From NCBI GenBank assembly GCA_011364905.1, contig RDNZ01000016.1, positions 10,830 to 57,070 on the forward strand: DNA of 46,241 nucleotides, given 5' to 3'. Every line of letters starts with the position of its first letter. The stretch's first letter is position 1. Shown one piece after another: positions 6,105 to 31,240 of the stretch. Both the position numbers and the translations under genes were made by a program. Source of the stretch: Candidatus Thorarchaeota archaeon (GTDB lineage: Archaea > Asgardarchaeota > Thorarchaeia > Thorarchaeales > Thorarchaeaceae). The notes beneath the pieces were generated by a model, which saw only the letters and a list, made by a program, of their open reading frames with translations, was not told the origin of the DNA and searched no databases.

Positions 6105-7085
6105 ATGATATACAGAAAGCTTGGTCGCACAGGTCTGAAAGTATCACGGTTTATTCTAGGAACTATGCAGATGGGCTGGATTATCGACAAAGAAGCCAGT
6201 CATAGTCTTTTGGATACAGCTCTTGAGGCTGGATTAAACACCATTGACACTGCTGATATTTACAGCAAGTGGGGTGAGGGATCATACGCTGGAAAGTCAG
6301 AGGAGATTATTGGTAGTTGGCTTTCAGACCGGGGAGTGAGGGAGGATGTGGTGCTGGCTACCAAGGTCAAAGGAGAGATGAGTGATAGGTCTAATGATGG
6401 TGGACTCTCACGAAGACATGTCATGGATGCAATTGAGAAGAGTCTGAATAGACTGAATACTGATTGGGTTGATATCTACTGGAGCCACTCACCAGACCAA
6501 GATACACCTCAGGAGGAAACCCTTCGAGCCTTCACAAGCATCATCGAAAGCGGAGCAGTTCACTATATCGGAGCATCGAATCATACGGCCGCAGAGATTG
6601 TCGAGGCCCTGTGGGTCAGCGATGTAAATGGTCTGGCAAGATACGAAGCTATTCAGCCATCCTACAGCCTAGCACGAAGGCGTGACTTCGAAAAGCATCT
6701 TCAGCCGGTGATTGAAAAATACGACCTGGGCGTCACAAGTTATAGCCCATTAGCAGGCGGGTTTTTGACTGGTAAATACTCAAAGGACAAGTTGCCTGAT
6801 TCCAAAAGAGCTGAAACGACAAAAGCCCGTTACTTCAAGGACCGCAACTTCAAAATTGTAGACACATTAGAGGAGCTGGCGTCAACCCATGATGCATCAG
6901 TCCCTCAAATTGCTTTGTCATGGGTCCTTGCTCAAGAGATAGTGACTGCACCCATAATCGGTGCAAACTCCCCTCAACAACTTGAAGAAAATCTTGGAGC
7001 CTTGGAACTCAAACTGACCCCAGATGATATCAGCCGGCTGAATGAGGCGTCAGACTGGATGAAAATGGATGAGTTGGCGCGTTAG
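6105..7085 (+). CDS. Aldo/keto reductase
   Basis: LGRTGLKVS, DTADIY, LATKV, YIGASN, YSPLAGGFLTGKY, PIIGA. Confidence 0.93.
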   Translation: MIYRKLGRTGLKVSRFILGTMQMGWIIDKEASHSLLDTALEAGLNTIDTADIYSKWGEGSYAGKSEEIIGSWLSDRGVREDVVLATKVKGEMSDRSNDGGLSRRHVMDAIEKSLNRLNTDWVDIYWSHSPDQDTPQEETLRAFTSIIESGAVHYIGASNHTAAEIVEALWVSDVNGLARYEAIQPSYSLARRRDFEKHLQPVIEKYDLGVTSYSPLAGGFLTGKYSKDKLPDSKRAETTKARYFKDRNFKIVDTLEELASTHDASVPQIALSWVLAQEIVTAPIIGANSPQQLEENLGALELKLTPDDISRLNEASDWMKMDELAR

Positions 7086-7203
7086 ACAACCTTCAGGCAC
7101 ATTTCTTTCTGGTCGAAATATCGACGAACTGGTCTATTCAAGAAAGCTTCATTAATAATATCCAATAGAAGAACTTGTCCGTAAGTGCATCAGAGGAAGT
7201 TCT

Positions 7204-7899
7204 ATGAGAGCCGTACTCAAGATTGGAGGATCACTCCTCTATGATGATGACGGTCAAGTTCGTATTGACCGACTGAGAGAGTACGCTAACTCAATCAAGT
7301 CTTTGGTCAATGATGGAAACCTGTTGGTTGTCGTTGTGGGTGGTGGAAGACCTGCACGAGTCTACATCTCAGCAGCTCGAACCCTAGGCGCAGATGAGGC
7401 ACAGTGCGATTGGCTCGGAATAAAGGCGGCAAGAAATAATGCCGAACTCCTTGGTGCAGCTCTTGGTGATTTTGCGTATCCCAAGGTTGTTGACGATTAC
7501 GATGAGCTCGAGGTGGCAGTCAATCTGGGGAAGGTTGTACTGCTAGGGGGCATGGTGCCTGGTCAGTCGACCAATGCAGTGGCTGCGGCCTCTGCAGAAC
7601 TGATACATGCAGACATGTTGTTCAACGCGACCAATGTTGATGGTGTATATGACAAAAATCCTGAGAAGCCAGACGCCAAGAAACTAGAGAGCGTGACTAT
7701 CTTTCAATTGAGAGAGATTCTCTCAGATGAGGGAATCAAAGCAGGACAATACAATTTGTTTGATCCTGTTGCGATCAGGATTGTTGAACGATCACAGATC
7801 CCAACTGTGATATTCAATGGGAACAACCCAGAGAACTTGAAAAAGGTATTCAACAAAGAAAAGATTGGAACCCGAATTACTCATGGTACGAAAAAGTGA
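7204..7899 (+). CDS. pyrH: UMP kinase (archaeal type)
   Basis: VLKIGGS, VVGGG, PGQSTNAVAA, TNVDGVYDKNP, FDPVA. Confidence 0.93.
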   Translation: MRAVLKIGGSLLYDDDGQVRIDRLREYANSIKSLVNDGNLLVVVVGGGRPARVYISAARTLGADEAQCDWLGIKAARNNAELLGAALGDFAYPKVVDDYDELEVAVNLGKVVLLGGMVPGQSTNAVAAASAELIHADMLFNATNVDGVYDKNPEKPDAKKLESVTIFQLREILSDEGIKAGQYNLFDPVAIRIVERSQIPTVIFNGNNPENLKKVFNKEKIGTRITHGTKK

Positions 7900-7920
7900 A
7901 TCCAACAAGAGGGAAAAAAA

Positions 7921-8211
7921 ATGAAGATGTTGCTCGAGAAGATTTTTGCATCCCGCGCGCAGACCCGCGTTGTCCAGCACTTCCTAGACCGTCCAAAGGA
8001 GTTCTTCAATCTGAGTAGGTTGGCAAAGGAAACTGGGCTTGCACACTCTACGATTCATCGTGTCATGCAACCTCTTGTTGACATGGGACTGGTGAAGGAG
8101 ATTAAGGCTGGACAACAGATTAGATTGTTTATTCTTGAGACCGAAGACGACAGATCAAAGATAATCTCAGACTTTTATGCCAAAATCAGACCTCACCTTG
8201 AAACAAACTGA
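7921..8211 (+). CDS. Small winged-helix HTH protein
   Basis: FNLSRLAKETGLAHSTIHRVMQPLVDMGLV wHTH pattern. Confidence 0.75.
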   Translation: MKMLLEKIFASRAQTRVVQHFLDRPKEFFNLSRLAKETGLAHSTIHRVMQPLVDMGLVKEIKAGQQIRLFILETEDDRSKIISDFYAKIRPHLETN

Positions 8212-8286
8212 AATCTTGTGCTGCTCGCCTTTTTCATTGTTTAAGCCAAAACGGCTATATTGAGATAGAATATTCCTGCAAAGTAT

Positions 8287-8435
8287 GCCGAGGTAGCCAA
8301 GCGGCCAACGGCGGTGGACTCAAGATCAGCTAAACATCGCTTTGACTCCTAGGAGAAATCCACTCTCGCAGGAGTACATGGGTTCGAACAACCATACGCT
8401 TCGTATGATTGGAACAAATCCCATCCTCGGCACCA
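8287..8435 (+). tRNA. tRNA-Leu(CAA) with two introns (8325-8357 at 37/38; 8388-8417 at 58/59), CCA encoded
   Basis: Acceptor GCCGAGG/CCTCGGC + A-CCA; anticodon stem GTGGA/TCCAC with CT-CAA-G|A; long variable arm; T stem ATGGG/CCCAT; both inserts have bulge-helix-bulge-like flanks. Confidence 0.9.
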
Positions 8436-8464
8436 TCCCTGTAACTAACTCTGAGTCAACTTCC

Positions 8465-8923
8465 TCATTTCCTGATACGAACTATCCTCGCACGAGTAGC
8501 TCTCACAATTTCCTCAGGGCGTATTCTGAGGAGATGATGATCTGTCCCGCCCCCTCCAATCACCTCAGACATCTCCATAACTCTTGAATCAATAAGGACA
8601 TCAGCATTTTTGATAGCTATCGGAGGGGTCCCACCAACTTCGAATCCTGTCAGATTGAGTGCCTCCTCAGGCGACGCAAGTCTGGGAGGTGCAATACCAA
8701 TGGCAGCGCCCAATCTCTTTGAACTTGCACGGTCGGTGCCATTCACGATGGCAAGAATCACTTTGTCGTCAACTACGAATACCACTGTCTTGATGATTCG
8801 TTCTGGAGGAATCCCAAGTTCTTTTGATGCAGCATCGACTGAATGAACCCGCCCCACCATGGTGAGAATTTCAGCATCTATGTTGTGTGATATTATGTAA
8901 CTCTGGAGATCCTTGTCATTCAA
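8465..8923 (-). CDS. YbaK/EbsC/ProX aminoacyl-tRNA deacylase family protein
   Basis: IIKTVV, TGFEVGGTPP, GGGG motifs. Confidence 0.88.
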   Translation of the reverse strand: MNDKDLQSYIISHNIDAEILTMVGRVHSVDAASKELGIPPERIIKTVVFVVDDKVILAIVNGTDRASSKRLGAAIGIAPPRLASPEEALNLTGFEVGGTPPIAIKNADVLIDSRVMEMSEVIGGGGTDHHLLRIRPEEIVRATRARIVRIRK

Positions 8924-23876: not shown

Positions 23877-25766
23877 ATGATGAGTGTGACAGAGTGGACT
23901 CAAAAATACAAGAAAAAAGTTGTAAGCGCGTCAAAGGCAATTCAGAGCATTAAACGCGGCGCAAGAATCTTCCTAGGGACCGGCTGTGGAGTGCCTTATC
24001 ACCTTGTTCAGGAACTGGCAAAACATGCAGGACAAATGGCGGACAATGAAATTGTTCACCTGCTCACACTTGGCGATACACCGTCAGCAGACCCAAAGTT
24101 CCAGAATGAGTTTCGACACAACACTTTCTTTGTGAGTCAAAATATACGTGAAGCTGTGTCAGAAGGACGAGCTGATTATACGCCCATCATGCTCTCAGAT
24201 ATCCCTGAATTGTTTAGGCAAAGGAGGATGCCTCTTGATGTTGCAATGATTCAGATCAGCCCTCCTGACAGGAATGGGTACAGCTCTTTGGGTATCTCTG
24301 TGGATATTACCAAGTCAGCTGCAGAGAGCGCAGACATTGTCATTGCCCAGGTAAATGAGAAGATGCCCATCACACACGGTGACTCATTCATAGATGTCAG
24401 GGATATCGATTTCCTCGTACCACACAATGAGCCACTGAGAGAGTTTCAGGCTGCTGAAATCGACGAAACAATTGACAAGATAGGGCGTTACGTCGCTAGG
24501 CTTGTTGAGAACGAATCAACCCTCGAGCTTGGGATTGGTGCACTGCCTCAGTCGGTATGTAATAACCTGTTGGAAACAAGTGTGAGAGACCTTGGAATCC
24601 ATACGGAAATGTTCAGCGACAGTCTAATTCCATTGATTGAGCAAGGGATTGTCACTAACAAGAAAAAGACCCTCCACCGAGGGAAAGTAATAGCTAGTTT
24701 TGCAATGGGTTCTGAGAAGTTGTATGACTATATCAATGACAATCCTATGTTTCAGTTTCATGATACTGCATATGTGAACGATCCATACGTCATTGGACAG
24801 AACAATAAGATGATAGCTATAAACTCAGCTCTTGAGGTGGACCTCACCGGACAGGTATGCGCAGACTCGATTGGACCCAGATTCTACAGTGGTATCGGAG
24901 GACAAGTGGACTTCATACGTGGTGCTAAGAGGTCGGAAGGAGGCAAAGCTGTCATTTGTATGGTCTCTACGGCGATGGATGGTCAAGTATCCAGAATCGT
25001 CCCGCGTCTGAGTGAAGGTGCTGGAGTTGTGACCACTCGCGGAGATGTGGATGTTGTAATTACTGAATATGGCTTTGCTACGTTACATGGCAAGACGATC
25101 AGGGAACGTGCTCTCTCGCTGATTGCTATTGCGCATCCCAAATTTAGAAACGATTTACTCGAAGCCGCTAAGAAGATGCAGTATGTCTTTGAGGATCAAG
25201 TCCCATTCCTTGTTCAGGGAACATATTTCGCCACAGAATATGAAACGCAAGAAACTTTCAAGACTGCAGATGGACCTCTTGAGGTTCAGTTCAGACTAAT
25301 AAGACCAGATGATGCTGATAGAATCAAAGAGCTGTTCTATGACTTGAGTGAAGAGAGCATCTATTTCAGATTCCTCACTCCGCTGAAGTCGTTACGGAGA
25401 CAAACGCTTCAAGACTTCTATAATGTTGATCAAGCAAGCGATATCAGTGTGGTCGCAGTTATACAGGGAAGCGAAGAGGGAGATGTTGAAAAGATCATTG
25501 GTGCTGGAAGATACCTTCTGAACAGAAATACAAACGAAGCTGAGTTTGCTTTGCTTGTTCAGGATGATTATCAGGGAATCGGAATTGGTACATTTCTTCT
25601 TAACCATCTCATGAGAATTGCCAAGAGTAAGGGTGTTGAGGCGTTTATTGCCTTTGTTCACCCACAGAATCAACCTATGATTCGATTCATTCACAAGACC
25701 GGAAAGGTTGTTGAGAGTAGACTTTCAATCCAGGATGAGGAGTATCTGTTTCGACTCAAGCTGTAA
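23877..25766 (+). CDS. Acetyl-CoA hydrolase/CoA-transferase fused to a C-terminal GNAT acetyltransferase
   Basis: LGIGALP, DLGIHTEM, SGIGGQVDF, VITEYG; C-terminal LSEESIYFRF, AEFALLVQDDYQGIGIGT, N.PMI GNAT motifs. Confidence 0.9.
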   Translation: MMSVTEWTQKYKKKVVSASKAIQSIKRGARIFLGTGCGVPYHLVQELAKHAGQMADNEIVHLLTLGDTPSADPKFQNEFRHNTFFVSQNIREAVSEGRADYTPIMLSDIPELFRQRRMPLDVAMIQISPPDRNGYSSLGISVDITKSAAESADIVIAQVNEKMPITHGDSFIDVRDIDFLVPHNEPLREFQAAEIDETIDKIGRYVARLVENESTLELGIGALPQSVCNNLLETSVRDLGIHTEMFSDSLIPLIEQGIVTNKKKTLHRGKVIASFAMGSEKLYDYINDNPMFQFHDTAYVNDPYVIGQNNKMIAINSALEVDLTGQVCADSIGPRFYSGIGGQVDFIRGAKRSEGGKAVICMVSTAMDGQVSRIVPRLSEGAGVVTTRGDVDVVITEYGFATLHGKTIRERALSLIAIAHPKFRNDLLEAAKKMQYVFEDQVPFLVQGTYFATEYETQETFKTADGPLEVQFRLIRPDDADRIKELFYDLSEESIYFRFLTPLKSLRRQTLQDFYNVDQASDISVVAVIQGSEEGDVEKIIGAGRYLLNRNTNEAEFALLVQDDYQGIGIGTFLLNHLMRIAKSKGVEAFIAFVHPQNQPMIRFIHKTGKVVESRLSIQDEEYLFRLKL

Positions 25767-25829
25767 TGACATGTAAGAGAATAGATTCCATGGATGCGTG
25801 ATTAACACGCAAAAAGGATCGTTTGGACA

Positions 25830-26651
25830 CTAAATGTACGTGTGACGAATCTGAGCAGGACGACCCTTGACATGAATTGTTTCAAGAAAGGTTGTCATCG
25901 AATCGTTTGGAAACTCATACCCCTGATCGAGAATCTGCTGTTTCAAGGTCTTGAATAACTCCAAGACTGTTTCAAATTTCGGATCATCCAAAACGCTGCA
26001 GAACAACCTGTAGGTTTCTTCGGACATGCCCATCTGCTTTACGTGAGGGGTCCACCATTTAAGAGGTGGTGTCCACGACTTCTGCATCGTGAACCATAGA
26101 TTGACCGCTGCCACTACAGCACGAAACACGTTCAATTTGGAGTCATACATGAATCCTCTTCGTTGGTTGATGTCGGCATATCCTAGAGATCCGAGTAGGG
26201 TGCAGTACTTGTTCTTAAGTCGGTCGAGGTGTTCCTCCTCGGGATATCTTGCCAGCTTCTGTCGCCACTCCTCTAGTTTACCTGTTGGGTCGTGAATCAC
26301 AACACCTTCGACATATGGAAAGTGATCCATATCCAGTGGAGAATCAACCTGTTGTCTGAACCAAGCATCAGATATCGGAGAGAAATCGATCACCAACTTG
26401 CGAGGCTCGACTGATTCATCGAACTCAAGCCAAAGGGTATCTTTCAACTCAAGACTGTCATAGTACTCCTCGGTGACATAGATTAGGGCGTCCCAGTCGG
26501 TGGTTGGAGCACCAAATCCAGTGGCTCTACTCCCCCATAACATAACGCCAAGCACATGTGGCTCCTTTACAAGACCCTCAAGACGTTCGCGGACTATCTT
26601 GTCATCTATTTCTTCAATGCTTTTTACAATAGGAATCTTGTTTTCGATCAC
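25830..26651 (-). CDS. Nucleotidyltransferase-domain (DUF4037-like) protein
   Basis: GVMLWGSRATG...TDWD pol-beta NTase motif; IHDPTG..L..W; PPLKW. Confidence 0.7.
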   Translation of the reverse strand: MIENKIPIVKSIEEIDDKIVRERLEGLVKEPHVLGVMLWGSRATGFGAPTTDWDALIYVTEEYYDSLELKDTLWLEFDESVEPRKLVIDFSPISDAWFRQQVDSPLDMDHFPYVEGVVIHDPTGKLEEWRQKLARYPEEEHLDRLKNKYCTLLGSLGYADINQRRGFMYDSKLNVFRAVVAAVNLWFTMQKSWTPPLKWWTPHVKQMGMSEETYRLFCSVLDDPKFETVLELFKTLKQQILDQGYEFPNDSMTTFLETIHVKGRPAQIRHTYI

Positions 26652-26710
26652 CAGATATCGCCTTAGTCAATTTCGAATGTATCCGTCATTAAAGCGTGAT
26701 TGTCTGCGCC

Positions 26711-26795
26711 AAAAAGAGTGAAGGCGCCACTCCGCCGGGAAGCGGGAACGACAGACACTAGAAGTCGTGAATAGGGACCGTGGCGCTCAACATAC
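26711..26795 (-). ncRNA. Putative structured small RNA (three-way junction)
   Basis: GC-rich intergenic element; closing stem GCGCCAC/GTGGCGC, internal hairpins ACGAC/GTCGT and CCGC/GCGG; TTATTA box upstream and U-tract downstream on the minus strand. Confidence 0.45.
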
Positions 26796-26868
26796 ATGGA
26801 TTCTGTTCCTATCTAATAAGCACCTAGAAGTTTGGCGAGGTTAAATTGAAACCATCAGACTAGATTCC

Positions 26869-27060
26869 ATGACAGACACTGCGTTCCTTTCACTTGTGAG
26901 AAAATTCACAAAAGAGCAACTCCAGGCTATTGAGTCAATCCTTAATGTTCTCGACCCGGAGGAGTTTCGTGACTATCACGATCAGTTCGGTGTCTGTAAT
27001 GCACCAGACCGAATCGAACTGCTTAGGAGAGAGATACATTCCGCTTTAGAAAGGAGATGA
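26869..27060 (+). CDS. Small hypothetical protein (63 aa)
   Basis: Fills an intergenic gap; TTAAAT box upstream; helical composition. Confidence 0.5.
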   Translation: MTDTAFLSLVRKFTKEQLQAIESILNVLDPEEFRDYHDQFGVCNAPDRIELLRREIHSALERR

Positions 27061-27061
27061 A

Positions 27062-27313
27062 CTACACGACCACAAACGCAGGTGGAAACAGGACAAAATA
27101 CTCAATGACAATGGAAAGGACAATACCACCTAAGATGAGCCCTTTTCCTCTGTTCGGGTTGACATCCGTGAACCAGAGTATCGCACCAACGAGAACTACA
27201 ATGACTCCTGAGATCTGACCGATGAATATCAAGAAGTCCCAAATCTCAGCAAGGTAAAAACCAATCATCTGTGCAAAGTTCTGTAACGGAGATTGTAGTA
27301 GTACAAGATCCAT
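27062..27313 (-). CDS. Small hydrophobic hairpin protein, possibly VirB2/CedA1-like pilin fold
   Basis: 83 aa; two hydrophobic helices linked by NPNRGKG. Confidence 0.55.
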   Translation of the reverse strand: MDLVLLQSPLQNFAQMIGFYLAEIWDFLIFIGQISGVIVVLVGAILWFTDVNPNRGKGLILGGIVLSIVIEYFVLFPPAFVVV

Positions 27314-27403
27314 TCTCTCAACCCAAGAGATTGTGTGGCTTTCACGATTTAAGGTCCTAGAGAAGCCATTAGGGATACATGCCCTACAGAATTCAATATA
27401 CTA

Positions 27404-27832
27404 CTATAGTCTGTAATATCGCCTGGCACTTGGAATAGCCAGTGAGATGATCTCTGCTCCAGCAAAAACATCGATAATAGCAAAAAGAAGTTTTGAACTC
27501 ACATGTCCGGCATATGGCCAAAATGCAAGACTCTGGAACATAACCGGCGCCACCAATAGAATTACAATGCTCATAGAGATTCCGTAGAACCACAATATCT
27601 TACGCTCCTTCTTCATCCATCCTAGCATTATAATATCCATGAAACCCATTAAGTAGAAAACTGGTGGAAACGCGATGATCATAACGTCTATCGGCAGATG
27701 CGGACGATGGTCAAAATGAAAGATAATTACCCAATTGAAGACAATGAGCATCATTCCTCTGGTTGCCTGAAGTAGTGTACCTAATAGGACACTGTCCGGC
27801 CTCTTTGTTTGAACCTCAATAGTTGATTTCAA
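27404..27832 (-). CDS. Four-TM membrane protein, paralog of 29927-30367
   Basis: KRPDSVLLGTLLQATRG vs RKPDSVVVSTLLQADRG; IIDVFA vs IIDLFA; ARRYY vs AREFY; TTG start after GAGGGA. Confidence 0.75.
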   Translation of the reverse strand: MKSTIEVQTKRPDSVLLGTLLQATRGMMLIVFNWVIIFHFDHRPHLPIDVMIIAFPPVFYLMGFMDIIMLGWMKKERKILWFYGISMSIVILLVAPVMFQSLAFWPYAGHVSSKLLFAIIDVFAGAEIISLAIPSARRYYRL

Positions 27833-27894
27833 TATTCCCTCAGCCACCGGATAATTATGAACTCGAAATCTCTTTTGTTTTACGATGGGTTTAA

Positions 27895-27943
27895 AGAAAG
27901 TCCAGCAGAAGTGGTGGGCCCGGTGCAAAGTTCTGAAGCAGAG
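27895..27943 (-). repeat. tRNA-Ile 3'-end-derived repeat R3 (att-like junction)
   Basis: TGGTGGGCCCGG (27912-27923) is identical to the last 12 nt of tRNA-Ile; flanks are homologous to R1. Confidence 0.75.
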
Positions 27944-28070
27944 ATCAAATTGGTATCGGATTCATTTACTCTGCGTATTCAAAGCGCTTGCATGTTGATT
28001 CATGGTCTTGGAGGTTCTGGGTCGGAGTAACATCAATATGGTCTCATGTAACAATTGAACGAGGAGTTTC

Positions 28071-28412
28071 ATGAAGTTGATAGAAGAAAAAAATGGTGTC
28101 CCACAGAAATGCGTGTGGTGTGGTAAATCGGTCACGAGCGATACTTGGAGTGAGTACTGCTCTTTCAGATGTACTGCTGCTGGTAGGTATCGTATGTATG
28201 TGTTGCTTTCTATCATTGGTCCAATAATATTGACAATCATGTTGTTTGTGCTAGTTATGATGGAATTTGATTCATGGACTTATCTGCTAATACGCCCGAG
28301 TTTGTTATTTCCACTCTTTATTATTACTGGAGTGAGTATATTCTTCATTTATGGAACATATGTGGGAAGGATATTAAGAAACGAAAAACAAGTGGACACT
28401 ATAGAAAGTTAG
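28071..28412 (+). CDS. Zn-ribbon (CxxC...YCSxxC) plus two-TM protein
   Basis: CVWCG...YCSFRC followed by two hydrophobic helices (DUF2116/TRASH-like architecture). Confidence 0.7.
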   Translation: MKLIEEKNGVPQKCVWCGKSVTSDTWSEYCSFRCTAAGRYRMYVLLSIIGPIILTIMLFVLVMMEFDSWTYLLIRPSLLFPLFIITGVSIFFIYGTYVGRILRNEKQVDTIES

Positions 28413-28423
28413 TCAAACAAAAA

Positions 28424-28437
28424 CGGTGGACCCGGCG
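28424..28437 (-). repeat. tRNA-Ile 3'-end-derived repeat R2
   Basis: CGGTGGACCCGGCG, 12/14 identical to the tRNA-Ile end, preceded by the same AAAA flank. Confidence 0.6.
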
Positions 28438-28695
28438 GTTTAATCCTTCCCTGTCTTTTTCATTCTCAATTTTTCATTGGCTAGTGTATTCATTTAGCGC
28501 GGGGATTTGAGAGAACCGATAATTGGGGACAGACAGAATATATCAGGAGTTTAGATCCGTAATTGAAGAGGGTCCTGAGAAACTCTCTGGGGTGTCTAGA
28601 ATGCATTGTCGGGCAATCCCATATTTGTTGAAGAAGCAAAAGAACAAACACTTCATAAGATGGATTGCGTTGATTCCACCAGGGAGTCACTAATA

Positions 28696-29811
28696 ATGAG
28701 GTCTAGGGAAATACGGGTTTTTCTCATTCTTTCACTTTTGTTGATCATCTACAATTGCCTTGATCTCAATCAGGTTGAAGCACAACAGGCAACTTGGCAT
28801 GAAATTGAACCCGGTAGTATGATTGAATGCAGTGAAGAGATTGGTAGTGGAGAAACCATCCAGTATTCTGTACTTGTGAATGCCCCTCAGGCATATCAGG
28901 TCAAGGTCCTGATCATGAACGATGCTGCATTTTATGAGTGGTGGTATGAAGAGAATTCAACCGGAGTCGTCTATGAGGAGTGGGCAATAACTGGAGAATT
29001 GTCTACGTATGAGATGCAAGCGCCCTATAGTGACGAGTGGTACGTTGTATTCTATAACACAAATCAGTATGATTCAGCAAATATAGATGCGGAGGTCCAC
29101 ATTGGTTCTTGGACCATATATATTCCATACGAAGGTACCGGTGGGCGTTCATCGTTGTCAGGAATCCTCTTCATAGGGGGACTTGTTCTCGTCATAGCTG
29201 TAGCGATATTTCTGCTTTATAGGCGGCGAAGATCGATAGTTGAAGCGAGAGAGAAGAATCTTCTAGAACAGGGAATACAACAGCTAAGTGTTGGAGGTTT
29301 TGATGATGCAGAAGTGACTTTCAGGACTATTGTTGAACAAAACCCTAAGTCTGCGATTGGGTGGCGTTATCTTGGTGATGTCCTTGTGTTAAAAGATAAT
29401 ATACCCAATGCTAGAATATGTCATCAGACAGCAGTTAGGTTCAATCCAAAGTACGGGTATAGTTCAACAATTAAATCAAAAACAAAGGTTTCAGGTGAAC
29501 CTTGGACTGAGTCAACAGTCACTTTGGATTTGACCATGAAAGTGCAATCACTAACAAAACCTCTGCCATTTGGAATTATGGATTCTGATGCGAAATTGTT
29601 CGAACAGACGCTAGAACAGCAACAAGAGAAATTAAAGGAGAGTCCTGATGATTCTGAACTAATGAAGAAGGTGGCTGAAACTCTATACATGATTGGAAGA
29701 AATAGAGAGTCAGCAGAAATGTATGGTAAACTACTAGCTAAAACTCCTGATGACTGGAAAGTTCACGATTCACTTCTAATGTCTTTGGGCGGTGCAAAGT
29801 ATCAAAAATAA
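28696..29811 (+). CDS. Single-pass membrane protein: signal peptide, extracellular beta domain, TM, cytoplasmic TPR repeats
   Basis: Hydrophobic N-terminus ending VEA|QQ; WYVVFYN beta-rich domain; TM followed by RRRR; TPR motifs (QNPKSAIGWRYLGDVL...AVRFNP). Confidence 0.75.
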   Translation: MRSREIRVFLILSLLLIIYNCLDLNQVEAQQATWHEIEPGSMIECSEEIGSGETIQYSVLVNAPQAYQVKVLIMNDAAFYEWWYEENSTGVVYEEWAITGELSTYEMQAPYSDEWYVVFYNTNQYDSANIDAEVHIGSWTIYIPYEGTGGRSSLSGILFIGGLVLVIAVAIFLLYRRRRSIVEAREKNLLEQGIQQLSVGGFDDAEVTFRTIVEQNPKSAIGWRYLGDVLVLKDNIPNARICHQTAVRFNPKYGYSSTIKSKTKVSGEPWTESTVTLDLTMKVQSLTKPLPFGIMDSDAKLFEQTLEQQQEKLKESPDDSELMKKVAETLYMIGRNRESAEMYGKLLAKTPDDWKVHDSLLMSLGGAKYQK

Positions 29812-29815
29812 AACC

Positions 29816-29866
29816 GGAAACTCAAGCAGAAGTGGTGAGCCCGGCGTGGATTCTCTGAAGTTAGAG
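29816..29866 (-). repeat. tRNA-Ile 3'-end-derived repeat R1 (att-like junction)
   Basis: TGGTGAGCCCGGCGTG (29833-29848), 15/16 identical to the tRNA-Ile end; flanks GAAAnTCnAGCAGAAG and TCTGAAG..AGAG shared with R3. Confidence 0.8.
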
Positions 29867-29926
29867 CGCAGTGATTCTGTCCTGAGCTAATGTCCTAGGA
29901 ATGCAAATGAGGGATTACATGAAAGG

Positions 29927-30367
29927 TCATACTCCATAAAACTCACGAGCGTCTTTAGTGATCAATGCTGCAAGTTCAACTACGGCAAACAGATCAATGA
30001 TGACATACAAGAAGGAAATGTGGATTGATACGAAAATAGAGAAGAAAAACGGGACTACGAAGAGAATAACTATGCTCGATATTATACCGTAACGCCAGCC
30101 GTTCAGATTCTTCTCCCATACCAAATTCATCATGAATAGGTCAATTACGCCTATTAGAAAGTAAATCAAAGGCGGAGGTAGAAAAATGATATTGGTTCCG
30201 GGAATTATACCAACGGGTATTATTCTAATTGAGCCGTATCTGAAATAAAGAACCAAGTCGAGAATAATGAGAAGAATGCCTCTATCTGCTTGGAGCAATG
30301 TGCTTACTACAACACTATCTGGTTTCCTTCTAGGAACTTTGGATTTTGTTTCAGAGATGTCCCTCAA
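29927..30367 (-). CDS. Four-TM membrane protein, paralog of 27404-27832
   Basis: Alignable along its whole length with 27404-27832; TTG start after GGAAG. Confidence 0.75.
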   Translation of the reverse strand: MRDISETKSKVPRRKPDSVVVSTLLQADRGILLIILDLVLYFRYGSIRIIPVGIIPGTNIIFLPPPLIYFLIGVIDLFMMNLVWEKNLNGWRYGIISSIVILFVVPFFFSIFVSIHISFLYVIIDLFAVVELAALITKDAREFYGV

Positions 30368-30474
30368 CTTCCTTTCTCTGATTTTGAAAAATCCATGACT
30401 CAGTTTATTTGTTTTACGAATAGAACTATGGAATAATAGACTAGAACACTATAGGCAAGTAGGATAAGAGAAAA

Positions 30475-30552
30475 TGGTGGGCCCGGCGTGATTTGAACAC
30501 GCGATATCCGCCTTATCAGAGCGGCGCAATAACCAGGCTATGCCACGGGCCC
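30475..30552 (-). tRNA. tRNA-Ile(GAT), CCA encoded
   Basis: GGGCCCG/CGGGCCC acceptor; CCGCT-CT GAT AA-GGCGG; GCGTG-TTCAAAT-CACGC. Confidence 0.96.
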
Positions 30553-30768: not shown

Positions 30769-30832
30769 CAACATATTTTAACTATAGTTAAATAATTGGT
30801 ATGGGGTCTTTGCCTTGGGCGAAAAAAACGAG

Positions 30833-31240
30833 ATGAAGCGAATAGGCGCTAACGATTTGCTACGGTTCATCCTTGAGCTTTGGGCACTGGTGGCCTTTGG
30901 ATATTGGGGTTTGAATCAGAGCTTTGGACTCATTAATTATGTACTCATGATTCTGCTTCCTGTACTGGTGGCTGTCCTTTGGGGAGTTTTCGCAGTTCCA
31001 AACGATCCGAGTAGATCGGGGGGCGCGCCAGTCCCTGTTCCTGGTACTATCCGTCTACTTCTGGAGTTTCTGATTTTTGGGTCTGCATTTTTAGCGCTAT
31101 ATTGGGGAGGTTTATTCTATCTCAGTCTAGTCTTCATATCACTGGTAATCATTCACTATATTTTGGCGCGCGAACGAATCAGATGGCTCCTCAACACCAA
31201 GAGTCAATCAAGAGCCTCAGGGACAACATCCTCAATGTAA
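30833..31240 (+). CDS. YrdB (DUF2568) family membrane protein
   Basis: NDLLRFILELWAL..YWG, WGVFAVP, RLLLE. Confidence 0.8.
   Translation: MKRIGANDLLRFILELWALVAFGYWGLNQSFGLINYVLMILLPVLVAVLWGVFAVPNDPSRSGGAPVPVPGTIRLLLEFLIFGSAFLALYWGGLFYLSLVFISLVIIHYILARERIRWLLNTKSQSRASGTTSSM

Follow-up and report, generated by a model that had tools for sequence, protein, structure and literature searches.

A tRNA-Ile 3' end in Candidatus Thorarchaeota as a probable hotspot for the exchange and stacking of single-gene units

Background

Tycheposons of Prochlorococcus form tRNA-linked islands that grow by tandem accretion and contain partial-tRNA decay remnants (bioRxiv 10.1101/2020.12.28.424599). By analogy, the closest known kind of system to the locus described here is the tandem accretion seen behind tRNA genes in tycheposon islands and cis-mobilizable elements (CIMEs), and in outcome this locus resembles an integron. 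The locus is an array of single-gene units behind the tRNA-Ile(GAT) gene of an archaeal genome, within a stretch of 46,241 nucleotides of contig RDNZ01000016.1. The whole stretch is called the window, and positions given without a contig or locus name refer to it.

Archaeal integrons have reportedly been described by Ghaly et al. (Sci Adv, 2022), and the capture of genes at archaeal tRNA loci by integrases of the SSV type is said to go back to She et al. (Nature, 2001). Homology-facilitated illegitimate recombination is attributed, reportedly, to de Vries and Wackernagel in 2002, and flexible genomic islands kept by recombination in conserved flanks are said to have been described by Rodriguez-Valera and colleagues. 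The genomes of Asgard archaea are large and rich in genes, and they contain much foreign DNA, the entry route of which is poorly understood. In the literature, Asgard mobile elements integrate beside tRNA genes via viral integrases, and our literature search turned up no account of one-gene arrays that lack an integrase and have tRNA tails as borders.

All evidence used here is comparative and comes from sequence comparison among genomes and metagenome contigs. On this evidence, the 3' end of tRNA-Ile evidently serves as an accretion hotspot, where one-gene units have been exchanged between lineages and stacked in a few genomes. We put the probability that this is a hotspot of exchange whose breakpoints fall on the repeats at roughly 85%; the mechanism of exchange is graded separately below.

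Data sets

The genome holding the window (G000) comprises 3.08 Mb in 95 contigs and is 80.8% complete. A total of 39 loci were compared, consisting of loci from genomes of the same genus and from metagenome contigs retrieved by an 83-amino-acid protein encoded at the far side of the array. Numbers with the prefix G, C and L denote genomes, contigs and loci, respectively. The relatives are Candidatus Thorarchaeota, and the Asgard host suggested in a preliminary description of the window is thereby confirmed.

Results

The island and its boundaries

Comparison with the relatives defines a variable island of 3.1 kb, 27364-30474, between the tRNA-Ile 3' end and the conserved gene for the 83-amino-acid protein. 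The two boundaries are the following.

30475-30552, minus strand, tRNA-Ile(GAT) gene, intron-less, CCA encoded, anchor of the array (ARAGORN; Rfam RF00005, 63.6 bits)
27062-27363, minus strand, conserved distal boundary, consisting of the gene for the 83-amino-acid protein with two transmembrane (TM) segments (27062-27313) and its promoter region (27314-27363)

The left flank (25831-27363), which ends with the 83-amino-acid gene and its promoter, and the tRNA are both syntenic within the genus. The 83-amino-acid gene itself is syntenic in every relative with a protein identity of 63-93%, and in all loci compared the variable DNA begins directly after the position corresponding to 27363. The island is larger than the preliminary description stated, as a gene beyond the outermost repeat (4TM-B, below) belongs inside it. 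The impression that the region is AT-rich was correct: the GC content is 40.4% against a genome mean of 44.9% (standard deviation 1.9), the 0.55th percentile of genome windows. No other RNA gene was found in the island by an Rfam search, and no copy of the island is present elsewhere in G000.

Variation among relatives

The DNA between the tRNA and the 83-amino-acid gene ranges from empty to 3.1 kb among the 39 loci, which take their one-gene units from a common pool. Five loci are empty, having 12-74 nt from flank to tRNA; these include L055 and G014, in which the 83-amino-acid protein is 93% identical to that of G000. One gene is found in 23 loci, coding for a protein with four TM segments (4TM), a Zn-ribbon protein, a flavodoxin-like protein (F0) or a protein of 130-180 amino acids (F4). 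Two or three genes are found in seven loci, mostly in the order F4-F0-Zn, with the gene order of G004a swapped relative to G015. The remaining four (G000, G018, L069 and L071) are stacks bounded by copies of the tRNA tail. The closest relatives of G000, in which the 83-amino-acid protein is 90-93% identical, have either an empty site or a different single gene. The proposal that cassette number and order vary between relatives is borne out by these loci, and the gene content is not invariant.

The copies could in principle be scars of larger integrative elements, i.e. proviruses or plasmids with integrases, that have decayed to one gene each. Partial-tRNA decay remnants are known in tRNA-linked islands (tycheposon preprint) and one of the copies in G000, R2, is degenerate, which would fit such an origin. 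However, every unit across the 39 loci measures 0.45-1.4 kb and holds one intact gene, and the same units recur intact and with the same ends in other lineages. A six-frame search of the G000 genome gave no integrase fragment, and no pseudogene remnant of the other cassette families was found in the island, including its 258 non-coding nucleotides at 28438-28695. We therefore consider decay of larger elements improbable.

Tail copies of tRNA-Ile

Downstream of the tRNA, the island contains three copies of its 3' end, all in the same orientation as the tRNA. Direct reading and a repeat search (family D1) recovered them where they had first been noticed.

29811-29848, minus strand, R1, copy of the tRNA 3' end at 29833-29848 (15/16) with a tRNA trailer at 29811-29832
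28424-28437, minus strand, R2, degenerate copy of the tRNA 3' end (12/14)
27895-27923, minus strand, R3, copy of the tRNA 3' end at 27912-27923 (12/12) with a G018-type trailer at 27895-27911

R1 begins 22 nt past the stop codon of the TPR protein gene and R2 12 nt past that of the Zn-ribbon gene, as first described. Compared with the tRNA-Ile end and trailer of G018, R1 is 94% identical over 32 nt and R3 93% over 29 nt. Across all 3.08 Mb of the genome, the exact 12-mer is confined to the tRNA and R3, and the 16-mer with at most one mismatch to the tRNA and R1. A rough estimate of the chance expectation in the 3.1-kb island gives about 4e-5 for R1, 2e-4 for R3 and 0.01 for R2, and a profile of the tRNA end and trailer gives E-values of 8e-6, 5e-5 and 0.5, respectively. 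R2 is a weak copy for which the argument is mainly positional: its place mirrors the adjacency of the Zn-ribbon stop codon and the tRNA at the single-cassette loci of G008, G012 and G033.

The repeats are tied to tRNA-Ile, as had been proposed. A reading as repeats dispersed over the genome was ruled out, the cores being confined to this locus and the island having no second copy. The hallmark of tRNA-integrative elements, an intact tRNA and inserted DNA bounded by direct repeats of the tRNA 3' part in the same orientation, is present in G000, G018, L069 and L071.

The mosaic locus L069

The loci L069 and L071, which come from different samples, have a block of 1.9 kb in common that is 97.8% identical, with flanks at 81-85%. 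The start of this block coincides exactly with the tRNA end in L071 and with the internal tail copy in L069. Its far end lies approximately 320 nt past the 83-amino-acid gene, in ordinary flanking DNA.

The other part of L069, comprising the tRNA and an F4 cassette, is 89-95% identical to L078 and G015, with flanks at 69-75%. The cassette, 480 bp between the tail copy and the tRNA, has a DNA identity of about 95% to the tRNA-proximal F4 of G015 and L078, and the other end of the block is found 75 nt upstream of the tRNA, again in ordinary flanking DNA. The F4 protein of L069 is 92-93% identical to those of G015 and L078, and the neighbouring 83-amino-acid protein 83%. On its left the tail copy of L069 carries a foreign T-stem allele (CACGC). 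In G015 the matching position is occupied by a decayed sequence that resembles the tail, with a trailer-like run behind it.

From these block identities it follows that constant-ended cassettes move between lineages with a breakpoint on the tail copy, and the tail copies thus evidently mark a breakpoint of exchange. A breakpoint at a repeat had been set as a test of the preliminary description, and the switch in L069 falls on the tail copy. The hallmark of homology exchange is likewise present, with mosaic blocks of 89-98% identity in flanks of 69-85%, one boundary at the tail copy and the others in ordinary flank. We also considered L069 and L071 as an isogenic pair with and without the cassette; this was ruled out, as they belong to different species with a common transferred block.

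Anatomy of the junctions

R1 and R3 had been noticed to have flanks in common outside the tRNA part. The similarity is real: the left flanks are 89% identical over 28 nt, and the right flanks match more weakly. Its interpretation as attP-like arms was not upheld, since the left part is a genomic tRNA trailer of the G018 type (93-94% with the core) and the right part is decayed promoter and first codons of the 83-amino-acid gene. For the latter, a 14-species profile of the flank end was used in an nhmmer search.

29850-29898, plus strand, decayed end of the left flank (83-amino-acid promoter region), adjoining R1 (nhmmer E=0.0048; MAFFT alignment)
27923-28042, plus strand, decayed first ~14 codons of the 83-amino-acid gene with promoter, joined to R3 (repeat D2; nhmmer E=3.1e-7 for 27923-28012)

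The right flank of R3 additionally gave blastn matches to the flank ends of G008, G010 and G007, reaching 28042 against G008. Both pseudo-flank copies are decayed, with approximately 71-74% identity, a stop codon and indels. The trailers of R1 and R3 differ from the trailer of the tRNA in G000 itself and match the genomic trailer of another lineage, so the copies were made from chromosomal DNA and not from mature tRNA. No flank fragment was found at R2 or at the tail copies of G018, L069 and L071.

At the joins of tRNA tail and flank in R3 and R1 only 1-4 nt are common to the partners, and the exact join at R1 is ambiguous. For the first ~20 nt to the right of R1 there are two possible alignments, one to the start-codon region and one to the codons matched at R3, which is how the preliminary description paired the two flanks. 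R1 and R3 may hence have arisen in two separate events or be duplicates of a single ancestral junction.

The two G000 junctions are evidently head-to-tail joins of the two conserved flanks. In the alignments, the G000 stack looks like three alternative versions of one locus placed head to tail. The first version would run from the tRNA over 4TM-A to the flank promoter remnant, the second from the R1 tail over the TPR gene, R2 and the Zn-ribbon gene to flank promoter and codons 1-14, and the third from the R3 tail over 4TM-B to the true promoter and the 83-amino-acid gene. Single counterparts are found elsewhere: a 4TM gene beside the flank in G005, G010, G039 and G037, and a Zn-ribbon gene divergent from the 83-amino-acid gene in G008, G012 and G033. 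In G000, 4TM-B intervenes between the distal-most repeat, R3, and the flank; in L069, L071 and a tRNA-Val array (below) the distal copy adjoins the conserved flank.

Units that resemble alleles of one locus in a metagenome bin might suggest an assembly artefact, in which strain variants were concatenated. The 1-4 nt common at the junctions are far too little for a k-mer join, the pseudo-flanks are decayed, and R1 and R2 carry substitutions. Furthermore, similar stacks are present in the independent assemblies G018, L069 and L071, the latter two from different samples. An artefact is for these reasons very improbable.

Head-to-tail junctions of the tRNA tail with the 5' end of the flank are also the expected product of tandem duplication. 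A purely local array could arise by duplication of the segment from the tRNA to the 83-amino-acid gene, followed by divergence and differential loss without horizontal input; the 83-amino-acid gene is indeed tandemly duplicated in G017, and F0 identities track the flank. The content of the units, which hold unrelated genes, speaks against such an origin. Moreover, the identity between 4TM-A and 4TM-B is only 34%, and that of each to genes of other species 40-46%. The closest relatives, being empty or having a different single gene, and the cross-lineage transfer seen in the L069 mosaic also speak against local duplication, which we regard as quite improbable.

Cassette genes

Each interval contains one gene according to the list of open reading frames (ORFs), and the original descriptions of a 4TM pair, a Zn-ribbon protein and a TPR protein agree with hydropathy and Pfam. 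From the tRNA outwards the genes are the following.

29927-30367, minus strand, 4TM-A, 146 amino acids, ~4 TM segments by hydropathy, no Pfam family
28606-29811 (or from the ATG at 28696), plus strand, TPR protein, 401 (or 371) amino acids, single-pass membrane protein
28071-28412, plus strand, Zn-ribbon protein, 113 amino acids, CxxC...CxxxC and 2 TM segments (ORF, hydropathy)
27404-27928, minus strand, 4TM-B, paralog of 4TM-A (34% identity), ~4 TM segments, true start probably downstream of 27928

In G039, G010, G037 and G005 this locus has a single-copy gene with 40-46% identity to 4TM-A. Homologs of the Zn-ribbon protein are encoded beside the 83-amino-acid gene, at the same locus, in G008, G012, G015, G033 and several metagenome loci, with identities of 25-40%. 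The TPR protein probably consists of a signal or TM segment, an ectodomain, a TM segment and a cytoplasmic TPR-like tail, judged by hydropathy and sub-threshold TPR families. No close or intact ortholog of its gene was found in 27 genus genomes; the only match, at 31% in G036, is interrupted by stop codons.

Overall, the cassette proteins of G000 are 25-46% identical to counterparts in genomes where the 83-amino-acid protein is 88-93% identical. In comparisons between genomes, Zn-ribbon and 4TM proteins are likewise 25-46% identical where the adjacent 83-amino-acid protein is 80-93% identical, unlike the F0 cassettes, whose identities track the flank. The divergence of the membrane proteins beside a conserved neighbour points to very fast divergence or to allele replacement.

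The cargo had been described as cell-envelope genes. This holds for G000, where the cargo consists of membrane proteins, and not for the genus as a whole, where flavodoxin-like proteins, soluble proteins of 130-180 amino acids and a protein of 309 amino acids are found as well. The last is a candidate aminoglycoside/choline-kinase-type phosphotransferase (APH-like), judged by eye.

Other tRNA arrays in the genome

Tail copies are present at further tRNA genes of G000. On C31, tRNA-Val(GAC) has two and tRNA-Ala(GGC) four (6715-8729 and 25134-29739). At tRNA-Leu(TAG), on C7 41372-41911, an exact copy of 44 nt is located 437 nt downstream. At tRNA-Cys, on C25 58653-62037, there are two whole tRNAs with a partial copy between them and a 62-nt trailer in common. 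The tRNA-Val array has an empty site in G038. The length of the tail copies is 9-24 nt at tRNA-Ile and 21-44 nt at Val, Ala and Leu, and at Cys a whole second tRNA is found.

Searches for a recombinase and for recombination sites

The main rival explanation, and the model of the preliminary description, is insertion of small non-autonomous cassettes by a site-specific recombinase that targets the 3' end of the tRNA. Such an enzyme would be an integrase acting in trans from an unbinned plasmid or virus, or would belong to an unrecognised family (cf. tycheposon islands and CIMEs). The layout is classical in this respect, with an intact tRNA, co-oriented copies and, in L069, L071 and the tRNA-Val array, a distal copy beside the flank. 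The junction of L069 is attL/attR-like, having an 11-nt core and a foreign left arm (CACGC), and the boundaries of the F4 cassette are constant in different genomes.

Tyrosine, SSV-type, serine, Cas1 and Y1 families (PF00589, PF16795, PF00239, PF01867 and PF01797) gave no match in the G000 genome, which is 80.8% complete, while control genomes responded to each family. The ORFs of the island are without recombinase domains. Tyrosine recombinases do occur in 9 of the 28 genus genomes, mostly on very short contigs, which counts in favour of the rival; in the stretches of these contigs that were examined, no tRNA or tRNA tail was found. The other 19 genomes, several of them 93-97% complete, gave no match to PF00589. 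A XerA-type recombinase is carried by most archaea, and absence in 19 of 28 genomes is thus unexpected.

A viral attP was considered as well. The 48 IMG/VR matches to the 15-nt tail were all unrelated, mostly GC-rich and without tRNA similarity upstream, and the candidates were rejected; no viral contig has the tail in a meaningful context. No attC-like fold was found at R1, R2 or R3 on either strand (z-scores of -1.3 to +1.5 versus shuffles), and the inverted pair CAGAA/TTCTG noted at R3 does not give any fold beyond shuffles. The cassette ends read by eye showed no terminal inverted repeats.

Two further observations count against a site-specific enzyme. The tail lengths differ, with no common arm motif or fold, and R1 and R3 hold pieces of chromosomal flank rather than arms of an element. 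We regard this explanation as rather unlikely. From the proposal of an integron-like island served by a recombinase in trans, the likeness to an integron is kept as an analogy in outcome only, given that neither a recombinase of the families searched nor an attC-like fold was found in the genome; the recombinase in trans is hypothetical.

Neighbouring features

The intron of tRNA-Ile(GAT) varies within the genus, as a comparison with loci L011-L023 showed. The gene is intron-less in G000, G014, G018 and G017, and in other species the intron site is in the T-loop (G005, G008, G012, G004), the D-loop (G001, G015, G003, G006, G007) or the anticodon loop (G010), with two introns in some species. 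The intron position hence changes inside one genus.

On the 5' side of the tRNA, a gene for a DUF2568 membrane protein (30815-31240) has DNA matches in about 4 of 13 relatives with the region (G008, G018, G013, G004). In G014, a TIM-barrel gene almost directly adjoins the tRNA. The upstream side of the tRNA is hence variable too. In L049 (G037; 2684-2829) and L064 (2075-2286) the tRNA-Ile is inverted relative to the 83-amino-acid gene. A tail fragment in the original orientation lies ~100 nt away in L064, which suggests an inversion at the site.

The 83-amino-acid gene is tandemly duplicated in some lineages: L023 (G017; 1067-1658), L083, L099 and L131. The two copies in G017 are 65% identical. 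Paralogs of the gene are located just upstream of a different tRNA (3' end ...GCCCGCCA) in L092, L096, L101-L104 and L124, and G000 has paralogs on C93, C72 and C21.

Further out, an intergenic block at 26768-26855 is conserved across species (GGGACCGTGGCGC ... TCTAATAAGCACCTAGAA ... CGAGGTTAAATT) and is probably promoter or regulatory DNA. The block common to L069 and L071 terminates at the conserved intergenic GGGACCGTGGCGC element. We considered the GGGACCGTGGCGC block near 26774 as a second tRNA; this was ruled out, with no Rfam family and no conserved structure.

Discussion

We consider it an even chance that the exchange is recombinase-free and carried out by the host's own homology-guided recombination. 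DNA of related lineages would in this case recombine via homology or microhomology without a dedicated integrase, and its arms would be the near-invariant tRNA, the conserved 83-amino-acid gene and the spare copies of the tail. A first tail copy may have been formed by an illegitimate join of the tRNA tail to the 5' end of the 83-amino-acid gene. A unit of the form tRNA-X-tail could then convert any plain tRNA locus. As is evident from the stacks themselves, each stacking leaves a spare copy of the last 9-24 bases of the tRNA together with its trailer.

This reading is favoured because the tail lengths are variable, the blocks end in ordinary flanks and flank fragments are present at junctions. 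Additionally, many anchors are in use, no enzyme was found and the junctions are unfolded.

Several points weigh against a recombinase-free exchange. At the L069 junction the identical core measures just 11 nt, a length typical of site-specific cores and very short if recombination were of the RadA type, and the tRNA 3' end is a classical integrase target. With a genome that is 80.8% complete, and with metagenome bins often losing mobile elements, a recombinase acting in trans could have been missed. Most of the multi-gene loci (F4-F0-F1 and subsets) are without detectable tail copies, for which simple differential loss is a possible explanation. No pseudo-flank fragments were detectable within the genome in the Val, Ala, Leu and Cys arrays of G000. 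Finally, no circular or excised form of a cassette was observed in the comparative sequence data.

The locus offers a concrete and repeatable entry route, in which single genes appear to be swapped and stacked behind a tRNA in a genus mostly without a visible integrase. If host recombination alone is responsible, it would be a simple and general way to build arrays of accessory genes at conserved genes, with a bearing on gene acquisition by the archaeal ancestors of eukaryotes. A recombinase-free mechanism, if true, would be categorically new. Its small size and the natural occurrence of empty, single and stacked states make the locus suitable for population-level and reconstruction studies.

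Comparison with known systems

As in tycheposon islands and CIMEs, an intact tRNA is followed by co-oriented partial copies separating accessory blocks, the content differs between close relatives, and new material enters at the tRNA with older material further out. Unlike in those systems, the units here are single genes of 0.45-1.4 kb, and there is no integrase, replication module or remnant of either. Two of the junctions contain fragments of the opposite chromosomal flank, and the tail copies range from 9 nt to a whole tRNA. The repeat-flanked, integrase-less state of a CIME is found here; a cognate integrase was found neither in the genome nor linked to tRNA ends in the genus, as represented by metagenome bins.

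Compared with integrons (IntI, attI, attC), the cassettes are similarly mostly one-gene and promoter-poor, are held at a fixed chromosomal site, and are shuffled in order and content between relatives. There is, in contrast, no IntI (no PF00589) and no folded site of the attC type, cassettes occur in both orientations, and the 3' end of the anchor gene itself serves as the repeat. The defining enzyme separates the locus from both the tRNA-accretion elements and the integrons, and attC separates it from integrons in addition.

SSV-type capture also places foreign DNA behind archaeal tRNA genes, flanked by repeats of the tRNA 3' part, where it can become trapped. It differs in leaving split integrase halves at the borders, none of which are present here (no PF16795 or PF00589). 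Insertion of the casposon or CRISPR type by Cas1 resembles this locus in that it targets the 3' ends of tRNA genes or conserved genes, duplicates the target and yields a polar array. It is set apart by Cas1 (PF01867), which is absent here, and by the length of the duplication, which at these loci is not fixed (9-44 nt, up to a whole tRNA).

Illegitimate recombination and flexible islands agree with this locus in the entry beside a conserved anchor, in the mosaic identity and in blocks that end in ordinary flanks; joins with 1-4 nt of common sequence may be a further likeness to illegitimate recombination. To our knowledge, neither is known to leave ordered arrays of anchor ends or to move constant-ended one-gene units. 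Tentatively, and with somewhat less than even confidence, the locus may be viewed as a recombinase-free equivalent of an integron, in which the 3' ends of conserved genes and their spare copies would act as portable homology arms for cassettes, or for whole versions of a locus, across species.

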